Positions 1,960 to 18,311 of a stretch of 64,000 nt of DNA are shown piece by piece; position 1 is the stretch's first letter; every line of letters starts with the position of its first letter. The position numbers were made by a program, and so were the translations under genes. The notes under the pieces are model-generated. The model saw nothing but the letters and a program-made list of their open reading frames with translations. It made no database searches and had not been told where the DNA came from. The stretch is from Podarcis muralis (taxonomy: Eukaryota), in assembly GCF_964188315.1 (NCBI RefSeq), contig NC_135659.1, forward strand, positions 75,268,001 to 75,332,000, read 5' to 3'.

Positions 1960-4881
1960 TCAGAGCACTCCTGACATATGGTTGTCAAGCCTCTGCTTAA
2001 AGACCTCCAAAGAAGGAGACTCCACCACACTCCTTGGCAGCAAATTCCACTGTCGAACAGCTCTTACTGTCAGGAAGTTCTTCCTAATGTTTAGGTGGAA
2101 TCTTCTTTCTTGTAGTTTGGATCCATTGCTCCGTGTCCGCTTCTCTGGAGCAGCAGAAAACAGCCTTTCTCCCTCCTCTATGTGACATCCTTTTATATAT
2201 TTGTACATGGCTATCATATCACCCCGTAACCTCCTCTTCTCCAGGCTAAACATGCCCAGCTCCCTTAGCCGTTCCTCATAAGGCATCGTTTCCAGGCCTT
2301 TGACCATTTTGGTTGCCCTCCTCTGGACACGTTCGAGTTTGTCAGTGTCCTTCTTGAACTGTGGTGCCCAGAACTGGACACAGTACTCCAGGTGAGGTCT
2401 GACCAGAGCAGAATACAGTGGCACTATTACTTCCCTTGATCTAGATGCTATACTCCTATTGATGAGGCCCAGAATTGCATTGGCTTTTTTAGCTGCCGCG
2501 TCACATTGTTGGCTCATGTCAAGTTTGTGGTCAACCAAGACTCCTAGATCCTTTTCACATGTACTGCTCTCAAGCCAGGTGTCCCCCATCTTGTATTTGT
2601 GCCTCTCATTTTTTTTGCCCAAGTGCAATACTTTACATTTCTCCCTGTTAAAATTCATCTTGTTTGTTTTGGCCCAGTTCTCTAATCTGTCAAGGTCGTT
2701 TTGAAGTGTGATCCTGTCCTCTGGGGTGTTAGTCACCCCTCCCAGTTTGGTGTCATCTGCAAATTTGATCAGGATGCCCTTGAGTCCATCATCCAAGTCG
2801 TTGATAAAGATGTTGAATAAGACCGGGCCCAAGACAGAACCCTGTGGCACCCCACTAGTCACTCTTCTCCAGGATGAAGAGGAACCATTGATGAACACCC
2901 TTTGGGTTCGGTCAGTCAGCCAGTTACAAATCCACTGAGTGGTAGCATAGTCAAGACCGCATTTTACCAGCTTCTTTACAAGAATATCATGGGGCACCTT
3001 GTCAAATGCCTTGCTGAAATCAAGGTAGACTACATCCACTGCGTTCCCTTCATCTACCAGGCTTGTAATTCTGTCAAAAAACGAGATCAGGTTAGTCTGA
3101 CATGACTTATTTTTCAGAAATCCATGCTGACTATTGGTGATCACAGCATTCCTTTCTAGGTGCTCACAGACTGTTTGCTTAATGATCTGCTCCAGAATCT
3201 TCCCTGGTATTGATGTCAGACTGACTGGGCGGTAATTATTTGGGTCCTCTCTTTTCCCCTTTTTGAAAATAGGGACAACATTTGCCCTCCTCCAGTCTGC
3301 GGGGACTTCGCCTGTTCTCCAGGAATTCTCAAAGATGACTGCCAGTGGTTCTGAAATCACATCTGCCAGTTCTTTTAATACTCTTGGATGCAGTTCATCT
3401 GGCCCTGGAGACTTGAATACATCTAGACTAGCCAAGTATTCTTGTACTGTCTCCTTAGTTATTCTGGGTTGTGTTTCCTCTGCTGAATCATTTGCTCCAA
3501 ATTCTTCAGGTCGGGCATTGTTTTCTTTATCGGAGAAGACTGAGGCAAAGAAAGCATTGAGGAGTTCAGCCCTTTCTGTGTCCCCTGTTTGCATTTCACC
3601 ATCTTCTCCTCTGAGTGACCCCACGGTTTCTTTGTTCTTCCTTTTGCTACGAACATACCCATAAAAGCCTTTTTTGTTGCTTTTAACCTCTCTAGCAAGC
3701 CTGAGTTCATTTTGTGCTTTAGCTTTTCTGACTTTGTGTCTACACGTGCTGGCTATTTGTTTGAATTCCTCTTTGGTGGTTTCCCCCCTTTTCCATTTTT
3801 TGTACACATCCTTTTTTAATCTTAACTCAGTTAAAAGTTCTTTAGATAGCCACCCTGGCTTCTTTAGGCACCTTCCATGTTTCCGTCTCATTGGTATTGC
3901 CTGAAGTTGTGCTTTTACTATCTCCCTCTTAACAAACTCCCAGCCATCTTGAACTCCCTTTCCTTTTAGTATTACTGTCCATGGGATCTCACCCAGCACT
4001 TCCCTAAGCTTTATGAAGTCGGCTTTCTTAAAGTCGAGAAATTGAGTCCTAGTATGCTTGGCTGCTCCTTTCCGCTGTATAGTAAACTTCAGAAGAGCAT
4101 GATCACTCGCGCCTAATGATCCTTCCACTTCTACCCCACTAACCAGGTCATCAACATTGGTTAGGACCAGATCTAAAATGGCTGTTCCTCTTGTTGCTTC
4201 TCCCACTTTCTGGACAATGAAGTTGTCTGCAAGGGCAGTGAGGAATCTGTTTGACCTTATGCTCTTGGCTGAGTTTGACATCCAACAAATATCAGGGTAA
4301 TTGAAGTCCCCCATTACTACTATCTCCCTTCCTTTTGCATGCTTGGCCATCTGTTCCAGGAAGGCATCATCTATGTCCTCCGTTTGGCTTGGGGATCTAT
4401 AGTAAACTCCCACAATGAGGTCACTGTTATTCTTCTCTCCCTTAATTTTCACCCAAATGCTCTCACTTTGGCTTTGAGGTTCTAAATCTTGGATCTCTTC
4501 ACAGGTATACACATCCCTGACATATAACGCCACTCCTCCTCCTTTCTTGTCTGGTCTGTTTCTTTGAAATAGATTGTATCCCTCCATTATTACATTCCAA
4601 TCGTGGGATTTATCCCACCAGGTTTCAGTGATTCCTATTATGTCATATTTAGTTTGCTGTACCAGGAGCTCAAGCTCATCTTGTTTATTTCCCATGCTTT
4701 GCGCATTAGTGTACAGACATTGAAGTCCATTAATCATTCCCCCGTGTCTCTTATTTAAGGATTTTTTCCTCCCACCACTAGGTCTGCATGCTCTTTGCTC
4801 CATTCGGTCTATGACATTTGGATGATCATCTTCATCAATTGATAGACTCCTACCTTCAGGAGCACTGTCTCCCTCCCCCAC
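1960..4881 (-). CDS. CR1 ORF2: apurinic-like endonuclease + reverse transcriptase
   Basis: 973 codons without a stop. EN motifs: [26 protein letters not shown] motifs: [42 protein letters not shown]. The track start is GTG and the first in-frame ATG is at about 4803, so the true start is uncertain. Confidence 0.96.
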
Positions 4882-4886
4882 ATTAG

Positions 4887-5921
4887 TCAGTTTAAAGCCC
4901 TCCTGATGAGGTTTCTGAGATTTTTTGCAAAAACATTCCTCCCAACCGTTGTGAGGTGCAGCCCACCGCTTGCCAGAAGTCCATCTTCAAGAAACTGCAT
5001 TCCGTGATCTAAGAATCCAAACCGTTCCTGTTTACACCATTTGCGAAGCCAGTTGTTCACTTCCACTATTTTTCCCTCTCTCCCTGGGCCACGTCGTTCA
5101 ACTGGGAGGACAGATGAGATGACAATTTGTGCATTTAATTGCTTCAATTTCCTGCCCAGAGCCTCGTAATCTCTTTTGATCTTCTGGAGACTATTGCTTG
5201 CAGTGTCATTGGTTCCCACATGAACCAAGAGGAAGGGGTATTTGTCAGTGGGTTTTATGATTCCTTGCAGTCGTTCAGTTACATCTTGGATCTTAGCCCC
5301 GGGGAGACAGCACACTTCCCGAGACATCTTGTCAGGCCCACAGATCACTGCTTCTGTTCCCCTCAGTAGGGAATCCCCTATCACCACCACACGCCTCCTC
5401 TTAGGTCTGGTCGGGGTTCTTCTGTGAGCTGTCCGTTCCAAGGTCGCCTGGACATTCCCTGAGGACTGCCTTTGCTGCTCGTCTTCATATACCTGATCGA
5501 CTGTAATGAGGGAGAGATCCTCAAATGGAGTCTGCTCTTCGTCTTCCATGGTAGGGGAAAGGACCTCAAAGCGATTGCGTATTTCTAAACAATCAAAGCG
5601 AACCCTGGGCCTCCTACTTCTTTGAGTCACGTTTCTCCATATATCTGGCTCCTGTGTTGGTGAACTAGCCACCTTCTCAGGGGAGTCCCCTGTCTCTTCC
5701 TTGGTGGAGACGGTGTGCTCTGTTGCTTCCAAGAAGAGTTCCAGGTCTCTAATTCTTTGGAGCGTAGCTACACGTTCCTCCAGTTGCTGGACTTTGTCTT
5801 TTAAGAGGGCAATCAACATGCAATTGCTGCAGGTAAAGCTGCCTGCAACCTTTGGCAAGATGGCAAACATTGCGCAGGAACCACAGGCGACTGCAGCTGT
5901 TCCCTCACCCTCCATCTTCAT
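4887..5921 (-). CDS. CR1 ORF1: Cx2C..Cx2C zinc finger, coiled coil, SGNH/GDSL esterase
   Basis: CGSC...CSNC, then the heptad segment [17 protein letters not shown]. Esterase blocks are VIGDSL, PGAKI, HVGTND and GGLH (normally DGLH). The start is taken at MKMEGEG (ATG 5921-5919), 344 aa. Confidence 0.92.
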
Positions 5922-6449
5922 CCTGCAGGGGGTGGATTGTGCTGGCTGATGAGAAATTAAGAGCCCCATTCCTTTGCTGGCTTCTCAAAAATGGTTCATT
6001 TCCTAATAGTGAAGTAAAACCTTGCAGTTATGAAATAGTGCCTTTGCCCGCAGGCATTTTCTTATTCTTGCTGTGGTGGCTGTGTGACAGTGCACTGCTA
6101 AGATGACATCTTTCAGTGTCCTGCTTCTATTATCTCATGCCCTGCCAATTTTCTAATTGTTAGTGGTTTTTATTTGTCATGCTTTTATTTCTTCATGCTC
6201 AACCCACACATGCAGCTGAAGCAGGAAATGAATGCTTCCTAGAATGAACATCCCAGTATCTCTCCAGCCTATTGTACACCTCTGATCTTCTCCCTTTAAT
6301 ATTGCCGAGGTTCTGAAGTGTCAAGCATTTGAAAGTAGACATTTGCAAAATATGCAGGTGGAATGCCATTTTCAAGCCTATCCATTGGTAGCTATCTCCA
6401 TAATCTGAATTTCAGCTACTTCAATCCATGTTACTATTCCCAATTTTTC

Positions 6450-9875: not shown

Positions 9876-10384
9876 AAGGGAGATGTGTTAAGTATAATTG
9901 GTTTAATTCACACTGAAATGATAATGCCTGTGTATTGGTAAAAAGGTTTAACACGGAGTGATTCCACTGAAGGTTTAGAAAAGCAAGAAGAGCTCTCTAA
10001 GCTTTTTGCAGGTTAATAATTCTCTAGCAGCAGCTAACACATGAGTGTTTAACCCTAGATCACATGTCAAAGGTATTTGGTTGCAAATCTCCATGTTTCA
10101 GGGAGTTGCCTTTGGTTCTTTGTTCTCCCCAACTCTGTGGAGTGAGGATGTAAATGAAGCTTTCCATGTAAACAGTTCCAGGGAAAATGGAGGCTGGAAT
10201 GGGGGAGAGACAGAGTTAAGGTCTCAATCCTGTTTAAAGATATTTCTAAGAAGATGCTGTGCTGGATATGCACAAGATTTGGCTGCATCATTTGCGTGTT
10301 GAGTCCCACAATTGCCACCCCCAAAAAATTCACACTTCACACATCAATTTTTGTTTAGGTTTTTGGCATAATTTTGGCCACAAC

Positions 10385-10390
10385 TTTATT
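10385..10390 (-). terminator. Putative polyadenylation signal of the YR element
   Basis: AATAAA within aataaagttgtggccaaa. The same motif is conserved at about 21026 (+) and about 29406 (-) in the related units. Confidence 0.6.
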
Positions 10391-10736
10391 CAAATACAAA
10401 ATGTGAGTGGTTGCTTAGGCATTGGTTATGACTATCTGTCCATGCCCTCAGGGACAGAGCTGGCATTCCGGACACCAGCGGAATCCAGTGTGGGAAACAA
10501 GTATTGGGTGAGAAAGTGAAGCTGGGTCTCAGTCCCGCACTTCTCACCCTCTTGTTCCTGTGGGGCTTGCACGGCCCAAGTCCGATTCCAGGGACAAGGA
10601 CGAAAAGAATGGCAAGCCCCTGGATTCCTTTAACGGAATTCCCTTCGCTCATTTGGAGGGGTAGGCACTTACCCCTCCAAGCACCATTTAACCAATGCCT
10701 AACCGCCATAGAGCCCACAGCTCACCGCCAAACCAC

Positions 10737-11324
10737 TCACAACCCCAGCCAAGCCCTAAGCTTGGCCACCACTGCACCCAACCAAACCTCATTCCCGGAG
10801 GCAGAAAGGTGCACACCATCGGCTCTAAAAAGGGATGCCGCCTGAAAATGAATCATTGGGTGCGAAATCACATCTCCACCCAATTCGGACATCTTTCTGG
10901 CTACCGCAGAATTGATGCGTTTCCTGGCCCTCTCCGTAGCTGCCGGGCAACGACTGCCCCTCCAAATGCGGCGGCGCAGCAGCTTGGACCAAAATATTTT
11001 TGCTGTTGGCATCCACGCCCGCAGCACCTCCAAGTCACTTAATATTGCAGCACGCAGAGAAAAACAGTCCGTGGATACCAGGTCATTCTCACCCAGCTGC
11101 ACCACTATAGCCGTGGGCTCCCCTTCCAGGAGCAATTGCCTCTGGATTCGCGGCAAGAACTCGGACCAGCGCATTCCCCGTCTGGCCAGCCACGACAGCT
11201 GCACATGTGGAGGGAAGCCAAGGCCTGGACCCCATCTGGACTGCTGTGCTGCGACGCCCGCCCAATGGATGATGCTGTGCCCCACCATCCAGATGCGGAC
11301 AGCCACTAGACCTGAAGTAAACAA
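10737..11324 (-). CDS. SGNH/GDSL-family hydrolase of the YR element
   Basis: Block I VGHS, block II RRG, block III LGEND and block V DGVH give a full Ser-Asp-His triad. The track start is TTG and the first ATG is only at MVGHS. Confidence 0.88.
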   Translation of the reverse strand: MFTSGLVAVRIWMVGHSIIHWAGVAAQQSRWGPGLGFPPHVQLSWLARRGMRWSEFLPRIQRQLLLEGEPTAIVVQLGENDLVSTDCFSLRAAILSDLEVLRAWMPTAKIFWSKLLRRRIWRGSRCPAATERARKRINSAVARKMSELGGDVISHPMIHFQAASLFRADGVHLSASGNEVWLGAVVAKLRAWLGL

Positions 11325-11350
11325 ATAAACAATGTGAGAATCCCATATAA

Positions 11351-12232
11351 TCAGCGGACATAACCACGAAACGCATCCGACTTCCAGCGGCCCAAATCCT
11401 TTATTCTAGCAGCCGACAAACCCCAATGAGCCGCTGTCGTTGCCGCCCCAATCCTGAAGGAATGAGGGGCATAACCATAGGCCGTGCCATCGCAAGCCAT
11501 AATCGCCTTTCGCATCACCTGCGCAAACTGGCGCCTTGTTAGGGGCAGCCCATTTTCATGTTTAAACAAAGGCCCATCGCCTGGGGGACGCACTGCTAAG
11601 TACTTGTTAACATCTTTTACAGGGCAAGGGCCTGCCCCCCCCGTAGCAGGGAGACGAATGACGGCACCCCTACCCTTTTGATCCGTCTTTGAATTCCTCA
11701 CTGTAATTATTAGCTCTGCAGGGAATAGCTGAAGGTCCCGGAGCAAAAGGCCCCTAGAACGACCATCCTTGAGATCTTCCAACACAAGCTCACCCACTCT
11801 CAATGCTCCGAAGAAGGCAATAGAGAAGGCAGCCGAAAACAGGCGAGCCTCATACCCTGACCAACAAACCACCCGCAGCCTCTTACGCATCCTGCTTAGC
11901 AAGTCAAAAGAAATTGGGTGCCGTGGGGCTGGCTGAGAAGGGCGAAGCCTACCCCAGCCGTCCAAAGCCTTGCGCACAACAAACTTCGAACAAGGGTCTC
12001 TATCAAAAAATGTCTCACAGAAAAATGCTATAGCAGCTGCCTGAATCCTAATGGTCTTAGCTGCACGCCCCAGCTGAAATAAGTGCGCCAGATAACTTAA
12101 CACCTGCGCAGAGGAGGGGGGGACGCCTTTTAATTCGCTGGCAGCCCGGCGCATGAACGCCAAAAAATCGGACCAGGCCTTTGTGTAGGATCTAAGAGTA
12201 GAAGGGGAAACAGATGCCGCTACTCCCTGCAA
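11351..12232 (-). CDS. Tyrosine recombinase (DIRS/Ngaro type)
   Basis: N-terminal SPSTLRSYTKAWSDF helix, then LRVGEL (R), SKTDQ (K), HSFR (HxxR), GRW and terminal RGY (Y). The track start is TTG. Confidence 0.95.
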   Translation of the reverse strand: MQGVAASVSPSTLRSYTKAWSDFLAFMRRAASELKGVPPSSAQVLSYLAHLFQLGRAAKTIRIQAAAIAFFCETFFDRDPCSKFVVRKALDGWGRLRPSQPAPRHPISFDLLSRMRKRLRVVCWSGYEARLFSAAFSIAFFGALRVGELVLEDLKDGRSRGLLLRDLQLFPAELIITVRNSKTDQKGRGAVIRLPATGGAGPCPVKDVNKYLAVRPPGDGPLFKHENGLPLTRRQFAQVMRKAIMACDGTAYGYAPHSFRIGAATTAAHWGLSAARIKDLGRWKSDAFRGYVR

Positions 12233-12234
12233 AA

Positions 12235-14199
12235 CTAATTGCTGCCAAGGTTCCAGAGATGATCCGGGAAATATTCCGGACGTATCCGAGCCTCTGGAAC
12301 CAGGAGTCTGAACCGCTCCATCTGAAAACGGGACAGAGCATCAGCAATTTCGTTAGTCACCCCGGGAATAAAACGTGCAGAAAACACTATATTATAACGC
12401 AAACAGTGCAATACGAAGGCTCTTAATAAGGCGGACACCCTGGGTGAACGTGACGACAACTTTGCCAGCACGGACACCACTGCCTGGTTATCAGTCCAGA
12501 AGCAGACACGACGGTTCCTGAATTCCTCGACCCACAAATGCACGGCCACTGCAATGGGAAAAAACTCGAGAAATGTTAGGTCCCGTGAAATCTCTCCTCC
12601 CTGCCAGGCGGGCGGCCAACGCTCAGCACACCATCGCCCTTTCCAGTAAAGACCAAAACCCAGGGAACCTGCAGCATCCGAATGGACCTGAAAATCATTG
12701 CGCAGGTTCAACGTGTCCCGCCATAATGAAACCCCATTGAATTCCTCCAGGAATTCCAACCATATGGAAAGATCCGACCTCACCTCACTAGAGAGGCGCA
12801 CTCGATGGTGAGGAGCCCTCAACCCCACAGTGAGACGCGCCAAGCGTGAACAGAAAGGGCGCCCAGGCGCCACCACTCTACACGCGAAATTCAGGTGCCC
12901 TAACAGGGATTGGATTTGTAACAAGGAAACTTTCCTCAAAGGAAGCAGTTCCTCTATGACCTTCTTCAAGGCTACTAGCTTGTCACGTGGTAAACTAGAA
13001 GTCTGGGAAACTGTATCCAACAGGATACCCAGGTAGGTAAGCTGGGTAGACGGACCTTCCGTCTTTTCCGCTGCCAGCGGAACCCCCAGCTCCTGGGTAA
13101 GGTCAGCAAATGCTTGCAGCAACACCGAGCAATCGCCAGTGTCGTGGGCTGAGGCCAATAAAAAATCATCCAAGTAATGAGTGACTCCGCCCAGCCCTGT
13201 TTTGGATTTAAGAGCCCACTCCAAAAAGGTGCTAAAAGATTCAAAAGCAGCACACGCTATTGAACATCCCATAGGCATGGCCTTGTCAAAATAGAATTTG
13301 CCCTCAAACTGAAAACCCAGTAGCCAAAAATCATCCGGATGAATCGGGAGGAGGCGAAATGCCGATTCAATATCACATTTCGCCAATAGGGCCGCGCGGC
13401 CAAACTTCCGAATCATCTTGATCGCCTGATCAAGAGATGCATACTTCACGGAGCAACGCTCCGGAGGTATAGCATCATTAACTGAGGTGCCCCTAGGATG
13501 TGACAAATTATGGATTAGACGAAATTCACCTGGGGCCTTCTTTGGCACGATACCCAATGGGGATACATGCAAATTATGAAAAGGAGGGGCATCGAAAGGA
13601 CCAGCCATCCGATGCATGGCCAGCTCCTTTGCGATCTTTTTACGGGCAACCTCAGGCAACTCCCGAACTGATTTTTGATTAGCTGGATTCCGTGCCACGG
13701 GTGGCATGGCTACCGGAATCCGAAAACCAACAGAAAAACCATCAATCAAATAGCCGGCAGCGTCCCTATCAGGATAAGATTGCAGCCAATGTTGTAGTGC
13801 CGGCAAACGAACAGGGGTATGAGCTAGGGAGAACAACACCTCATTTTCCTGTGCCTGATGTAGAAGCGAGAGAGGTGTTTTGCTTGGGGGGTTGCTGAGA
13901 ACCCCCTTTTCCCCCACGAAAGGGCCGCCGATACCCAAAACAAGAGGAGGCAGGATGCGAGCCATTGCATTTCTCACATATGTGAGCGTACCTGCAACCT
14001 TGACGCTGACAAGAGCCCTTATTAAACTCCCAGCAAGGTAAGCGACGGCTGGACCTAAAAGCCGTATTCTTCGGCTTCTGTTGCTCTGGCACCTTTTTAT
14101 CGATGAGTGGAGCAACATAGGTGGTCCACACATCGAGATCCTTGCGATCCCACCGAGCTGATGGGATCCTGGCGGCGCGACGCCTAAAGTGTTCATCAT
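12235..14199 (-). CDS. Reverse transcriptase + RNase H
   Basis: RT motifs: FRLIHNLS, KCDIESAFR, MPMGCS, YLDDFL. RH motifs: SDAAG, LEFFPI, TDNQAVV, ADALSR. The ORF ends about 30 aa after the last RH motif, so there is no methyltransferase. Confidence 0.96.
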   Translation of the reverse strand: MMNTLGVAPPGSHQLGGIARISMCGPPMLLHSSIKRCQSNRSRRIRLLGPAVAYLAGSLIRALVSVKVAGTLTYVRNAMARILPPLVLGIGGPFVGEKGVLSNPPSKTPLSLLHQAQENEVLFSLAHTPVRLPALQHWLQSYPDRDAAGYLIDGFSVGFRIPVAMPPVARNPANQKSVRELPEVARKKIAKELAMHRMAGPFDAPPFHNLHVSPLGIVPKKAPGEFRLIHNLSHPRGTSVNDAIPPERCSVKYASLDQAIKMIRKFGRAALLAKCDIESAFRLLPIHPDDFWLLGFQFEGKFYFDKAMPMGCSIACAAFESFSTFLEWALKSKTGLGGVTHYLDDFLLASAHDTGDCSVLLQAFADLTQELGVPLAAEKTEGPSTQLTYLGILLDTVSQTSSLPRDKLVALKKVIEELLPLRKVSLLQIQSLLGHLNFACRVVAPGRPFCSRLARLTVGLRAPHHRVRLSSEVRSDLSIWLEFLEEFNGVSLWRDTLNLRNDFQVHSDAAGSLGFGLYWKGRWCAERWPPAWQGGEISRDLTFLEFFPIAVAVHLWVEEFRNRRVCFWTDNQAVVSVLAKLSSRSPRVSALLRAFVLHCLRYNIVFSARFIPGVTNEIADALSRFQMERFRLLVPEARIRPEYFPDHLWNLGSN

Positions 14200-15364
14200 A
14201 TTTTATCGCCGCTTTTTCACCGGCTTTGGTAAAGGCGGAGCGAACAATAGATAAGTAAACCATCAAATGAAGAGATCTCCGCGGGTAAGCCGCCACCACC
14301 ACGCCAGCAAAGACCTGGAAACAATCGAGCCATATCTCGAAAGTCCTATCTGAAGGGGAAACACCCTGGCGTTTATTTGACGATTTCCCTTTTTCCTGGT
14401 CCTCCGAAGGAGGGGCCAGTTTGAAAATGTCTACATAACGGCCGTTCAGTATCCTAGAGCGCAGTTTTGACGACAAATGTGCACCTGGGATTATGTCCCT
14501 GGCGGAATTGGTAGATACTTTAACGTCAGGTACCAAAACGCCATCCTTACACTCTTGCACCGCTCCATACCTTGCCCGGTGGGTGTTGGCCCTACGATCC
14601 CAAGCCCACCGAGGCAGCCCCGTCGATTCCCCAAAGCCCCAATAAAGTTCCCGTGAGGCTCCCGTCTCATCGTCAGAACTAGAAGATGACATACCAGAAG
14701 AAGAGGAAGATGATTCGCCCCTCCTCCTCTTGGCACGCTTCCGGGAAGACCTCCTGCGGCGGCGCTTTCCACCCGAAGACTTCCTGGCAGGGACTGGCAG
14801 ACTATCCTCAATGGAAGACTCAGAGTCAGGGCTCAGGTGTGATGCACCTGGAACTGATGGAGGAGAAACAACAAGTGAGAGGCCGGAACCAGATGCCACC
14901 TCCACGGAATGTTGGGTGCGTCCACTACGGCGGGAGGAAGCTGCCAGAGGGCTTTTCTTTCCCGTGGCTCTCCCAGAGGAACGGCGTGGCCTTCGCGAAC
15001 GGCCGCGAACGGCAGGTAAGTCGCAGGGCTGGGAAGTCTGGGCATCAGACAGCAAACCCCTAGATGAAGAGCCTTCTCTCTCATCTTCACTAGACGATGG
15101 TGACGCAGGAGACGACGCCGCTACCGGACGAGGACGACTCCCAGACGTGGAAGGCTGGGCAGAGCATTGTTGAAGGAGACCATCCATTTCGGCTGCGAAA
15201 CGAGACAAAGCAACTGGGTTGCCGGCCATGCTTTCCACCAGAGACTGCACCCGGCCCACTGGTTGCCTCGGGGTGGGAGAACGAAGCGCCTGCGATGGAC
15301 CTCTAATAGGCCGTTTTGCAGCGGAAGCCAGGCCGGGGCGGGCAGTGACTTTCTTGGGAGCCAT
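13841..15364 (-). CDS. Gag-like protein (Ser/Arg-rich, C-terminal CCCH + CCHC zinc fingers)
   Basis: 507 aa starting at ATG. Contains CWEFNKGSCQRQGCRYAH followed by CEKCNGSHPASSC, and overlaps the RT ORF by 359 nt. Confidence 0.9.
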   Translation of the reverse strand: MAPKKVTARPGLASAAKRPIRGPSQALRSPTPRQPVGRVQSLVESMAGNPVALSRFAAEMDGLLQQCSAQPSTSGSRPRPVAASSPASPSSSEDEREGSSSRGLLSDAQTSQPCDLPAVRGRSRRPRRSSGRATGKKSPLAASSRRSGRTQHSVEVASGSGLSLVVSPPSVPGASHLSPDSESSIEDSLPVPARKSSGGKRRRRRSSRKRAKRRRGESSSSSSGMSSSSSDDETGASRELYWGFGESTGLPRWAWDRRANTHRARYGAVQECKDGVLVPDVKVSTNSARDIIPGAHLSSKLRSRILNGRYVDIFKLAPPSEDQEKGKSSNKRQGVSPSDRTFEIWLDCFQVFAGVVVAAYPRRSLHLMVYLSIVRSAFTKAGEKAAIKYDEHFRRRAARIPSARWDRKDLDVWTTYVAPLIDKKVPEQQKPKNTAFRSSRRLPCWEFNKGSCQRQGCRYAHICEKCNGSHPASSCFGYRRPFRGGKGGSQQPPKQNTSLASTSGTGK

Positions 15365-15420
15365 ACCTGCTACTTGAAATCAAACAGAGAATAAACGGTT
15401 GCTATAGTCGAAGAAACAAA

Positions 15421-15462
15421 CCTATCTATCTATCTATCTATCTGTCTGTCACAATTTAATAT

Positions 15463-15493
<31 letters not shown>

Positions 15494-15540
15494 TATTTTT
15501 AATTGAGATTTATATTATTTATTTTATTATTTATTTGCCT
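15421..15540. repeat. (CTAT)n and (ATTT)n microsatellites inside the YR element leader
   Basis: Direct reading of the tandem tetramers. Confidence 0.9.
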
Positions 15541-16703
15541 TCCAGAGCCTGAGTCTGAAATTAAAAGGAGTGCACTTGCTCCCCTCAACCAGCAGGGGGC
15601 ACCTGATAACCCTTAAGCTCAGTTAGGGAAGACGCAACCTTGCCCTGAGCCACCAGGGGGAGCTCCCAACAGATCTCCCGGCTGCAGTGACACCGCTCGG
15701 CCACAAGGTGGAGCCGTCGGACGAACTGGCTGCAGCTACAAGGAAATCTCCTCGCGCAGAGAGCGCTATTGGGCCCCTTACACCAAAATGTCGGGCGCAA
15801 GCGCGGGCCGCCGCTCCCGATCCCCGGCGAGCGGCCCCGCCGCCTCTCGCCGGAAGGGAAGGAGGGGGAAGCCGGGCGACCGTTAGGCCAAGCCCTGGAC
15901 GCCGCTAGGCCGGCTCGCGGATACAGCCGCAGTCCGGCCTGATTCCCCCACAAAATCCGGCCGCTCGCGCCCTCACCGCCGGCACCAGCGACGAGCGGCG
16001 GAAAAGCCTCTCCCGCACCTCCGGGGGCAATTAATCGGGGAACCGTCCCCCCCCCCCACAGCGGATGCCGCCGCAGGCCTGGGGAGAGGCCAAGGAACCG
16101 CACCGTCCCTTCTCAATCCCCGGCGGCCGCGAGCAGGTAAGGGGCAAGCTTAATTTTTTAAACGGAAAAACAGGGGAAAGAGGAAAAAAAAAAAGGAAAG
16201 AAAAGGGGGGGAGGGGGCCTTAAGGCAGCGGGACTTCAAGGCCCGAGCAGGCCTACCGTGCGCACCAGCCACGAGCTCCCAGCCGCGGCACCGGGGACGA
16301 GCGCCCTCAAAAAAGGGGGGGGGGGTGCCTAAGCAGCAGCCGCGGCGGCAGCCGGCAGCGAGCGACCCAAAAATTAATAAAAGGCCAGGTACCTAGCCCA
16401 AAGGCAGGTACCCGGAAGGCCGGGGGGGGGGGGACCCACCCTCAGGCCTATGGCTGTAGTCCACTCAATTTAAGTTAAGTAAAGGTAAAAGGATAAGAAA
16501 ATCAGTAGGGAGAGGATCAGGAAGAATGGGGCGATGGGAGGAAAAAACGCTAGAAGAAGGTAAGGGAGAGAGAGGAGGACAAAATCAAACGAGGCCAGGG
16601 AGTGACGAGGGAAAATTAGGAATTTGGGTAGGCCCAAGGAAAGCGAAAGTGAAAGGTGAATACAACCGTCTCCAGCAGCTCCTGATCCGATGCAAAAACG
16701 GCC

Positions 16704-16740
16704 AAGAGGAAGTCCAACCTCTGGCCCCCTGTATTTATAA
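16704..16740 (-). promoter_or_regulatory. Putative TATA box and initiator of the YR element
   Basis: Minus strand TTATAAATAC (16740-16731), then ACTTCCTCTT (16713-16704) about 26 nt later. CTTCCTCTT...GCATCGGAT is conserved in the 20315 unit. Confidence 0.6.
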
Positions 16741-18311
16741 CCTCTAACCCCTCCCAAATTCTCCTCACACGAAAAATCCCCGGCAACCCAATTTTAACCC
16801 CTTAGGAGGCTTGGGTTTACCAAATCTGCCTAATCACGGTCAGGTGGCTTGTTTCCCCCAACCGCAACACGTGCTCTCTGTTAAGGAGAACACGCTTTAC
16901 TGTTTATTTTAAAGAAAGTTCTGCAAAGTAAGCTTGGAATAATATTTTCATGGGTCTGGGCAATCTTCATTCCAAAAGGGCTCAGTTTTTATGCATCCAG
17001 TTACTTCATGCTGCACAATATTAATATCTGCAGAAAGTTGAAAGTCATCTTAATTCTGCCTGGTAAAGTTGGCACAGAAGTTGTTCTCTTAATATATAAA
17101 CAGCAGCATGACACTCAGAAGGTGCATTGCATGGAGTTCCATGCATGGAGTTCCACTTCAGTGAAGTGGGTGATTCAAATGGCATTTGCATAGACATAAT
17201 TCCATGTGCATATTTTTTTTTTAGAATATAGGGTGCAGCAACATGCTGGACTGCTTTCAGGATGAAACAAAAATGGTTCTATCTCCCTATGAATTAAAGG
17301 GAGAAGGTCAGATTAATAAATTCAAGCTGTTGCTTCCTGTCTTCAAATGGTTTTTGAACTCTATTTTTTTTTTTTTTTTTTTGCCAATCACCTTTTGCCA
17401 AAGGAGAGGCAGAGTTATTCCAGGAGGGTAACCTGAGTTATTATCAGAGTCTCCTTTTTCTTGTCTTGCTCCTGGTGCTGTGGCTCCCAATGTGAAGGGC
17501 AAAAATAAGAATAAAAAAAATACGGAGGATGCCTTTTATATGCCCTACATTAGCAAAAACACCAGATTGAGAGGATCAGAAATGGAAACTGCATTTCTCT
17601 TTTGAAAAGGTAGAGCGCTGATAGCATCTGTTTATCCTTCCCACGCTTCCGAACTCCTGCTGGGAGCTGCAGACTTCATCTAAGAAGACTGTACAGAAGA
17701 TTGCATACTTGATGATATACATGTGGGCAAAAAATGCTGACTATCTCCTCCAGAAACCCTCTATCCCTGAATGGCTCTAGATTAATTCTGGCATTATCAA
17801 GTTTGTTCATTTGTAGGCAAAATAGGATGGGTGATGCCTGCTGTGAGCCTCAACTTTCAAATAAGAGGAAGATATTGGATTGCACACTTGATGATATGGC
17901 TGTGGACCCAAACTCTGAAAATCTCCTTGTCAAATGTTTATAGCTTTGAATGATTATGGAGCATTGCTGCTATTATCAAAGCCCAGGCATTTTTAACAGA
18001 AAACAGGATTTCTAAGTCCCTGCTGTTTTCAGCTAAAGGAGAATATTTATTGCATTTTTATCCCACCCTCCATCCAACCAACCAACCAACCAACCTGTAA
18101 TGTCCCAAGGGAAGATACCAGGTTGCACTTTTGATGCACAGGTTGCCAAATCATAGAATAGCCCCTTTGTGATTCTGCATCCATCTATGTCTAAGAAATG
18201 CTAGTCATCTTGTTTTGGGGTACAATAGAATCTGATAGCATTTCATTTAAGAAGAATAGGATCTTTTGCTAGATTTGAAGCCAAATAGTTATTCCTAAAG
18301 TTATACCAAAT

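Follow-up and report, generated by a model that had tools for sequence, protein, structure and literature searches.

A tyrosine recombinase (YR) retrotransposon lies on the minus strand of the window analysed here, 64,000 nucleotides of Podarcis muralis DNA (assembly GCF_964188315.1, contig NC_135659.1, positions 75,268,001 to 75,332,000). We have good confidence that it is a young lizard copy of Ngaro type with four intact genes and one copy each of repeats A and B, whose second set of ends, A2-C-B2, was probably deleted between identical B repeats. Such a copy would be likely to supply proteins while being unable to rebuild its own ends. The window copy is ordinary for its family, and the results at the family level are the more interesting ones. 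The features of the window copy are as follows.

10292..16896, minus strand: whole element in the A-ORFs-B form, without A2-C-B2 (arm to arm, 10294-16895; ORF, open reading frame)
16683..16896, minus strand: repeat A (A1), with the left arm at 16889-16895, a terminal hairpin and a TATA-like box at 16732-16739
15365..16682, minus strand: CpG-rich 5' leader, with an acceptor-like AG directly before the gag ATG
13841..15379, minus strand: gag-like ORF, 512 residues from stop to stop; 507 residues from the ATG at 15364 (13841..15364)
14689..14697, minus strand: predicted phase-1 splice donor, last exon base 14695, just after an Arg/Lys-rich stretch; motif in 16 of 17 gag-bearing copies
12235..14202, minus strand: reverse transcriptase (RT)-RNase H ORF of 655 residues, without a methyltransferase
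11351..12340, minus strand: YR ORF, 329 residues
12321, minus strand: first exon base at the predicted phase-1 YR acceptor, predicted branch point 12352-12356
10737..11405, minus strand: SGNH hydrolase ORF, 222 residues
11311, minus strand: first exon base at the predicted phase-1 hydrolase acceptor, a pyrimidine tract plus YAG in one phase in 17 of 17 copies
10292..10708, minus strand: repeat B, one copy, with AATAAA at 10385-10390 and the right arm at 10294-10300

The first-pass annotation had described four stop-free ORFs with catalytic residues, little CpG decay and limits at 10294..16895, and each point held on re-examination. The RT-RNase H frame carries YLDD, SDA, EFF, TDN and ADALSR, the YR frame LRVGE, SKTD, HSFR, GRW and YVR, the hydrolase GHSI, LGEND and DGVH, and the gag-like frame a Cys/His cluster; the motifs are presumed to have their usual roles. 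The observed/expected CpG ratio is 0.73 in the element and 0.22 over the remainder of the window. Positions 10294 and 16895 are the outer bases of the two 7-bp inverted arms (10294-10300 and 16889-16895) and the exact element ends, and similarity to siblings breaks off at both. No long direct or inverted repeat was found within the copy. A 14-bp inverted repeat in B was considered as an internal complementary region of the DIRS1 type and rejected, because it lies wholly inside B and its sequence is not that of the ends.

Complete members of the family have the layout A1-ORFs-B1-A2-C-B2, with a unique spacer C of 175 bp, which is the textbook arrangement of split direct repeats. Of the 20 closest 3' siblings, 13 have this layout and 7 end after one B like the window copy. 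A census of copies carrying the exact hydrolase-B junction motif found 90 sites genome-wide, all of them long copies. An exact B-A junction lies 350-500 bp further on in 61 (scored by motif distance, with part of the sequences retrieved), and the other 29, all retrieved, comprise 8 complete and 21 single-B copies, with the window copy among the 21. The totals are therefore 69 complete and 21 A-ORFs-B copies, the latter lacking the cassette in the same precise way. In all 32 complete copies compared, A1 and A2 are at least 99.0% identical and B1 and B2 at least 97.8%. Single-B and complete copies can be near-identical to each other (L069/L094, 99.5%; L018/L019, 98.7%; L064/L090, 98.5%). In a tree of 30 gag-bearing copies, from which L102 was omitted as the region is absent, the 9 single-B rows need 9 changes and a single clade is rejected (p-AU 0.0002). 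The nine autonomous single-B copies are nine independent losses.

These results divide the earlier statement that the ends do not fit the textbook Ngaro layout: the window copy does have one A and one B only, but its family has the textbook repeats, and the 21 of 90 copies that lack the second set alike form no clade. On sequence comparison, the odd ends of the window copy are best described as the loss of A2-C-B2 and as no new design. The family is assigned to Ngaro by gene content and repeats, with RT-RNase H and a downstream YR, no DDE integrase, and split repeats in the order A1...B1 A2 B2; the first-pass annotation had already recognised the gene content, with the SGNH hydrolase after YR and no methyltransferase. 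No named Ngaro reference (Ngaro1_DR, Lv_Ngaro2 or DIRS-53_XT) was among the database matches obtained. Because the split direct repeats are missing from the window copy, it is a reduced derivative of a Ngaro-type family and not a complete Ngaro element. A Ngaro copy without repeats is no evidence of a new class. Two other assignments were considered and dropped. A PAT-like element would have split direct repeats and a methyltransferase, according to the consulted part of PMC7192593, and the methyltransferase is absent here. A DIRS1-like element would have long inverted terminal repeats and an internal complementary region, in place of which we find 7-bp arms only and siblings with direct repeats.

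The reciprocal product of the single-B form, a solo A-C-B unit, is far commoner than single-B copies. The upstream B was absent at 37 of 40 sampled C sites, 28 of these 37 having a recognisable A, and the genome holds 630 C-B junctions and 1,593 C motifs. The solo units (L021-L060, L062-L080) measure about 800 bp and number well over a thousand by motif count; some are 99% like complete copies, and each retains the promoter, the spacer fold and the poly(A) signal. One single-B copy (L108) lies inside or just downstream of an older solo, and one solo (L067) has an insertion of about 6 kb in B. The B-A junction consists of the two 7-bp inverted arms flanking AAA. Among 69 copies with both ends, long and solo together, the three left positions of the core carry A in 65, 62 and 68 copies and the three right ones in 69, 69 and 29, counts that fit recombination into an AA target.

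We propose that in complete copies the RNA would begin about 30 nt before the end of A1 and finish at the B2 poly(A) signal, reverse transcription would use A2 to restore the promoter-bearing part of A1 and B1 to restore the end of B2, and YR would integrate the circle via the B-A junction. In the window copy A1 closes with a conserved stretch of about 30 nt, the inferred place of the switch to A2. The window copy would be unable to rebuild its ends because no second copy restores the promoter upstream of the RNA start or the end of B past the poly(A) signal. It would thus be defective in cis and a helper in trans. Its only way back into circulation might be a template switch that captures the cassette of a sibling, an event that the chimeras described below appear to have undergone.

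Two observations weigh against deletion after insertion as the origin of the single-B form. Genomic deletion and a shortened replication form give identical sequence and are hence indistinguishable, and the solos (A x A, about 215 bp of repeat, 6.5 kb apart) outnumber the single-B copies (B x B, about 420 bp, 0.8 kb apart) many-fold, unlike what simple recombination predicts. The single-B form may instead arise in replication, with YR resolving the two identical B-A junctions of the circle into A-ORFs-B and A-C-B circles, or with a B1-ended RNA completed on a sibling's junction, followed by integration in either case. We judge this the less probable origin, though a serious contender. The B1-A2 junction is the presumed circle junction, some solos are very young (L029 is 99.7% identical to the complete L059, and L023 99% to parts of L012), inter-molecular template switches look common, and the excess of solos points the same way; yet no permuted A-C-B-A-ORFs-B was seen among the long loci retrieved, where free use of the internal junction should yield some, and resolution in one step predicts both products in equal numbers.

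The missing cassette could also be a collapse in assembly of the 810-bp unit, bounded as it is by 420-bp repeats that are nearly always 100% identical between B1 and B2, a further point against deletion. This is improbable, since the same assembly resolved the duplication in 69 of 90 long copies, the contigs are chromosome-scale and the reciprocal solo product has no such origin. That the window copy transposes as it stands, as an autonomous YR element with 7-bp inverted arms as its only terminal structure, is harder still to credit. Its exact ends, intact ORFs and high CpG content would suit such an element, as would the near-identical sequence in four other sequencing runs at about 0.7-3x flank depth. 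However, the tree largely refutes this idea, as single-B copies never cluster; the arms are halves of the family's B-A junction, and nothing would restore the promoter upstream of the inferred RNA start or the B end past the poly(A) signal. Deletion of A2-C-B2 between B repeats stays our preferred reading.

Further evidence on how the ends are renewed comes from non-autonomous copies, in which the decayed body of a distant lineage gives way to a current 3' end, the point of joining varying between copies and lying in RNase H, YR or the hydrolase. In 24 such chimeras (L088 and copies without A1 or the core segment were omitted), A1 follows B1 (rho 0.91, p 0.002) and does not follow the body (rho -0.04, p 0.58). 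The bodies are 96% alike and the bases following A1 nearly the same, with the switch point at the end of the conserved stretch of about 30 nt downstream of the TATA-like box. In L086, A1 is 99% and B1 100% like the autonomous L094/L069. Because A1 of the chimeras tracks the right-hand cassette and not the body, A1 is likely to be rebuilt from A2. Some caution is needed, as A1 also weakly tracks the leader next to it (rho 0.29, p 0.006), and pairs of chimeras are not independent owing to their relatedness. Such a pattern would follow if A2 served to restore A1 in every cycle and the cassette passed from one RNA to another, and the chimeras are a natural experiment on the rebuilding of a left repeat from an internal one. 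According to the consulted part of PMC7192593, DIRS-1 cannot do without its internal junction template, and its RT acts in trans. The young non-autonomous family includes L001-L004, L008, L010, L012, L018-L020, L061, L064, L079 and part of L082-L100; some of its copies have two YR and two hydrolase remnants, and tandem repeats in place of gag.

The splice signals of the family suggest how its downstream ORFs are expressed. The predicted donor follows gag codon 223 and is in phase 1 in 15 copies, one further copy having an upstream frameshift. The predicted YR acceptor has 36 columns invariant in 12 copies, compared with 19% invariant third positions in pol. Neither the YR nor the hydrolase ORF has a conserved start, and the hydrolase Met is replaced by Leu in 6 of 17 copies. 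Both predicted joins are open, giving a gagN-YR product of 546 residues and a gagN-hydrolase product of 414 residues. The sites were derived before the RefSeq models were found, and the predicted gagN-hydrolase join is identical letter for letter to XP_077785370.1. Similarly, Zootoca LOC118082278 has isoforms X1 (YR) and X2 (hydrolase) that share 207 residues and then diverge, and some Podarcis and Anolis YR models begin at the same DG residues. Of 19 long hydrolase relatives, 14 open with the N-terminus of gag, another 2 are YR-hydrolase models and the last 3 lack a match to the window gag. Since donor and acceptor phases agree and independent annotations use the same joins, YR and the esterase are likely to be made by splicing to the N-terminal part of gag and not by the frameshift proposed in the literature.

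Several points count against splicing. The donor is of moderate strength (mean 3.5 bits on the matrix used), the YR acceptor sits in a conserved RNase H motif and partly overlapping frames that also constrain the sequence, and the two YR-hydrolase models among the 19 long matches use other joins. No 546-residue gagN-YR model of the window locus appeared among the protein matches examined, and the XP_ entries of RefSeq are themselves predictions, so that splicing is read from sequence and annotation. In the competing account, YR comes from RT-RNase H by a ribosomal frameshift, translation of the hydrolase begins internally and the splice signals are incidental. It follows a proposal of Poulter and Butler (2015), as quoted in section 3.4 of PMC13003380, seen in part, and in the window the YR frame overlaps the end of RNase H by 106 nt. 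We consider it unlikely for the family: copies do not conserve an open frame ahead of the hydrolase acceptor, the hydrolase Met is not fixed, the acceptors share the donor's phase, and the same joins are used by independent annotations. Splicing and frameshifting could operate side by side for YR. For pol, we found neither a conserved slippery site nor an in-phase acceptor that keeps the whole RT N-terminus, and gag-pol protein models were not trusted. Gag would be translated from unspliced RNA, YR (546 residues) and the esterase (414 residues) would be spliced fusions to the first 223 gag residues, and the basic stretch of this part may give the fusions RNA binding or nuclear import. The leader contains no ATG in 1318 nt, where block shuffles give 12.4 (0 of 1000 shuffles reach 0). 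A perfect donor-like motif at window position 10672 (minus strand), close to where B begins, is shared unchanged by 12 of 12 copies and could influence use of the poly(A) site. In one host-like Zootoca protein model of 1030 residues (LOC118079504 isoform X6, P0018), the C-terminal end is this family's hydrolase, which suggests that the transcript of a host gene is spliced to the hydrolase acceptor.

Among the non-coding parts of the family, the best conserved is spacer C, which the window copy lacks. Single-sequence folds supplied a four-helix structure, and across 32 sequences 98.3% of its 984 cells are paired, compared with 37-51% in slid controls; these sequences are relatives of one another, selected through an exact motif next to the spacer. 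Of its 31 pairs, 4 changed on both sides, only one of these in the helix closing a U-rich loop. This hairpin resembles ENE elements in its U-rich internal loop closed by G-C pairs. ENE elements stabilise the RNA of Arabidopsis Evade (PMC12501189, in the part consulted). Rfam gave no match in spacer C of two complete siblings and only two chance-level matches outside it. In energy folds the end of C pairs just past the B2 poly(A) signal, while in B1 the end of the hydrolase pairs adjacent to the signal; in the window copy the corresponding prediction is a long-range pairing of 10731-10741 with 10402-10412. A structural switch between the two poly(A) signals is our hypothesis from these predictions, which are energy-based and concern invariant sequences, where no covariation can appear. 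A primer-binding site in C, considered by eye, was dropped as not conserved.

All four ORFs are under purifying selection across lineages. Comparisons of the window copy with 5-10 siblings gave dN/dS of 0.25 for the gag N half, 0.06 for the gag core, 0.06 for RT-RNase H, 0.11 for YR and 0.17 for the hydrolase, and the catalytic motifs are kept in nearly all of 12 copies compared. Pfam matched RVT_1 (E=3.6e-13) and, all under curated cut-offs, Phage_int_SAM_4, Phage_integrase, Lipase_GDSL_2 and Lipase_GDSL. No methyltransferase was matched in Pfam, and pol stops about 30 residues past the RNase H motif ADALSR. The gag-like ORF has a Ser/Arg-rich N-terminal half, a conserved core and the Cys/His cluster; it matched no Pfam family, and its name rests on position and this cluster. 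In one copy (L014), gag and pol form a single frame of 1061 residues, and in L015, 99.7% identical, they are separate. A PDB search with the single hydrolase sequence gave no match and its single-sequence fold was poor (pLDDT 46), so a model from a 65-sequence alignment was used instead; this has an SGNH fold (pLDDT 97.6; TesA, E=2.7e-8, TMq 0.74). The best PDB match of the hydrolase profile is the ZfL2-1 esterase (4C1B, E=2.3e-12), and 55 of the 65 aligned relatives match Lipase_GDSL_2. The amniote host named at first pass is confirmed by a Podarcis muralis RefSeq protein that contains the window hydrolase at 100% identity. By analogy to the ZfL2-1 ORF1p esterase, we speculate that the hydrolase acts on membranes.

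The first-pass annotation had also called the element young and possibly active, and had proposed copy number and divergence as a check. Youth stands for the family, which also looks recently active in view of the near-identity of A1 with A2 and B1 with B2 in 32 of 32 complete copies; for the window copy itself activity is in question, as it has no template for its ends and its nearest sibling is 88% identical over 5.1 kb, with none above 88% in the assembly. Its gag is 84% identical to the closest sibling among the best 40 of 95 candidates. Intactness is usual in the family: under a strict pattern, four open ORFs were counted in at least 19 of 29 gag-bearing copies, and 6 of these intact copies are single-B. 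Four public sequencing runs, one possibly from the assembled animal, contain near-identical sublineage contigs (0-7 differences per 0.2-1.1 kb, about 0.7-3x flank depth). The contig joints of these runs included no empty site or B-A joint among the 15 of 97 joints listed. Thus the family looks recently active and is young and diverse, while the mobility of the window copy is doubtful. Many intact lineages 80-90% alike coexist with one or two copies each, and consensus repeat libraries would blur them.

Chlamydomonas TOC1 has a unique spacer and solo ends. The closest described relatives in layout are Xenopus DIRS-53_XT and DIRS-54_XT, which in the part of PMC9210276 consulted share the order gag, RT/RH, YR and SGNH, lack a methyltransferase and have split direct repeats that are identical in young copies, copies with lost repeats also being reported. 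The lizard family differs in its host (that text names the hydrolase for amphibians), in its conserved 175-bp C and in a window copy without A2-C-B2, and splice signals and chimeras are not mentioned for the Xenopus elements in that part of the text. The DIRS1-like elements of PMC7192593 resemble the family in having both RT-RH and YR, in repeating the joined ends internally and in the trinucleotide core of the junction, as far as the sections consulted describe them; inverted terminal repeats, an internal complementary region and a methyltransferase, which are their own features, are missing here. Solo AB repeats of a Cafeteria Ngaro are ascribed to repeat recombination in the consulted part of PMC8547959, and SIRE of VIPER, composed of A2, a short unique part and B2, has its mobility left undecided in that of PMC6681497. 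Both resemble the solo A-C-B; in contrast to them, the window copy is the reciprocal A-ORFs-B product, and the lizard genome was counted for both products. The family bears on the origin of solo and single-B forms, as remnants or as products of replication.

In ZfL2-1 ORF1p (4C1B; PMC3905857, in the part consulted) the SGNH domain stands behind an N-terminal region with an arginine-rich motif, like the predicted gagN-hydrolase fusion. However, ZfL2-1 is a LINE whose protein comes from one ORF and has a coiled coil, and lipid binding and activity are shown for it, whereas the lizard hydrolase is known from sequence and model. As in the ENEs of KSHV PAN RNA and Arabidopsis Evade (PMC12501189, in the same part), spacer C has a U-rich internal loop closed by G-C and consists of non-coding sequence ahead of the last repeat and the poly(A) signal; unlike these, its U runs are short (4-5) and partly variable, and it occurs in the siblings only and not in the window copy. 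Among the matches listed, literature searches gave no paper that treats splicing in Ngaro, the structure of lizard Ngaro elements, the swapping of cassettes or ENEs of YR elements, and a search for Podarcis with Ngaro gave no paper. To the published record we add a census, a tree test, an exact match to annotation and the result on cassette swapping.

A broader picture, which we find about evenly balanced between right and wrong, is of a vertebrate Ngaro whose recombinase and esterase would be expressed like a retroviral env, alternatively spliced to the basic N half of gag, and whose B1-A2-C-B2 would form a portable replication cassette, with templates for the ends, a fold gripping the poly(A) and a switch to the second poly(A) signal. 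The cassette would be traded between RNAs, with cassette-less copies helping and dead bodies hitch-hiking. The family makes questions about split-repeat retrotransposons testable in a sequenced vertebrate, including the translation of YR and hydrolase, as exact junctions are predicted.

Two further observations were made in the window. On the plus strand, antisense to the CpG-rich leader and gag, strong donor-like motifs were spotted by eye at 16140, 15015 and 14036. At 1960-5984 on the minus strand lies an apparently intact LINE, presumably of CR1 type, with a 365-residue ORF bearing an SGNH-like esterase and a 1008-residue endonuclease-RT ORF, both stop-free.

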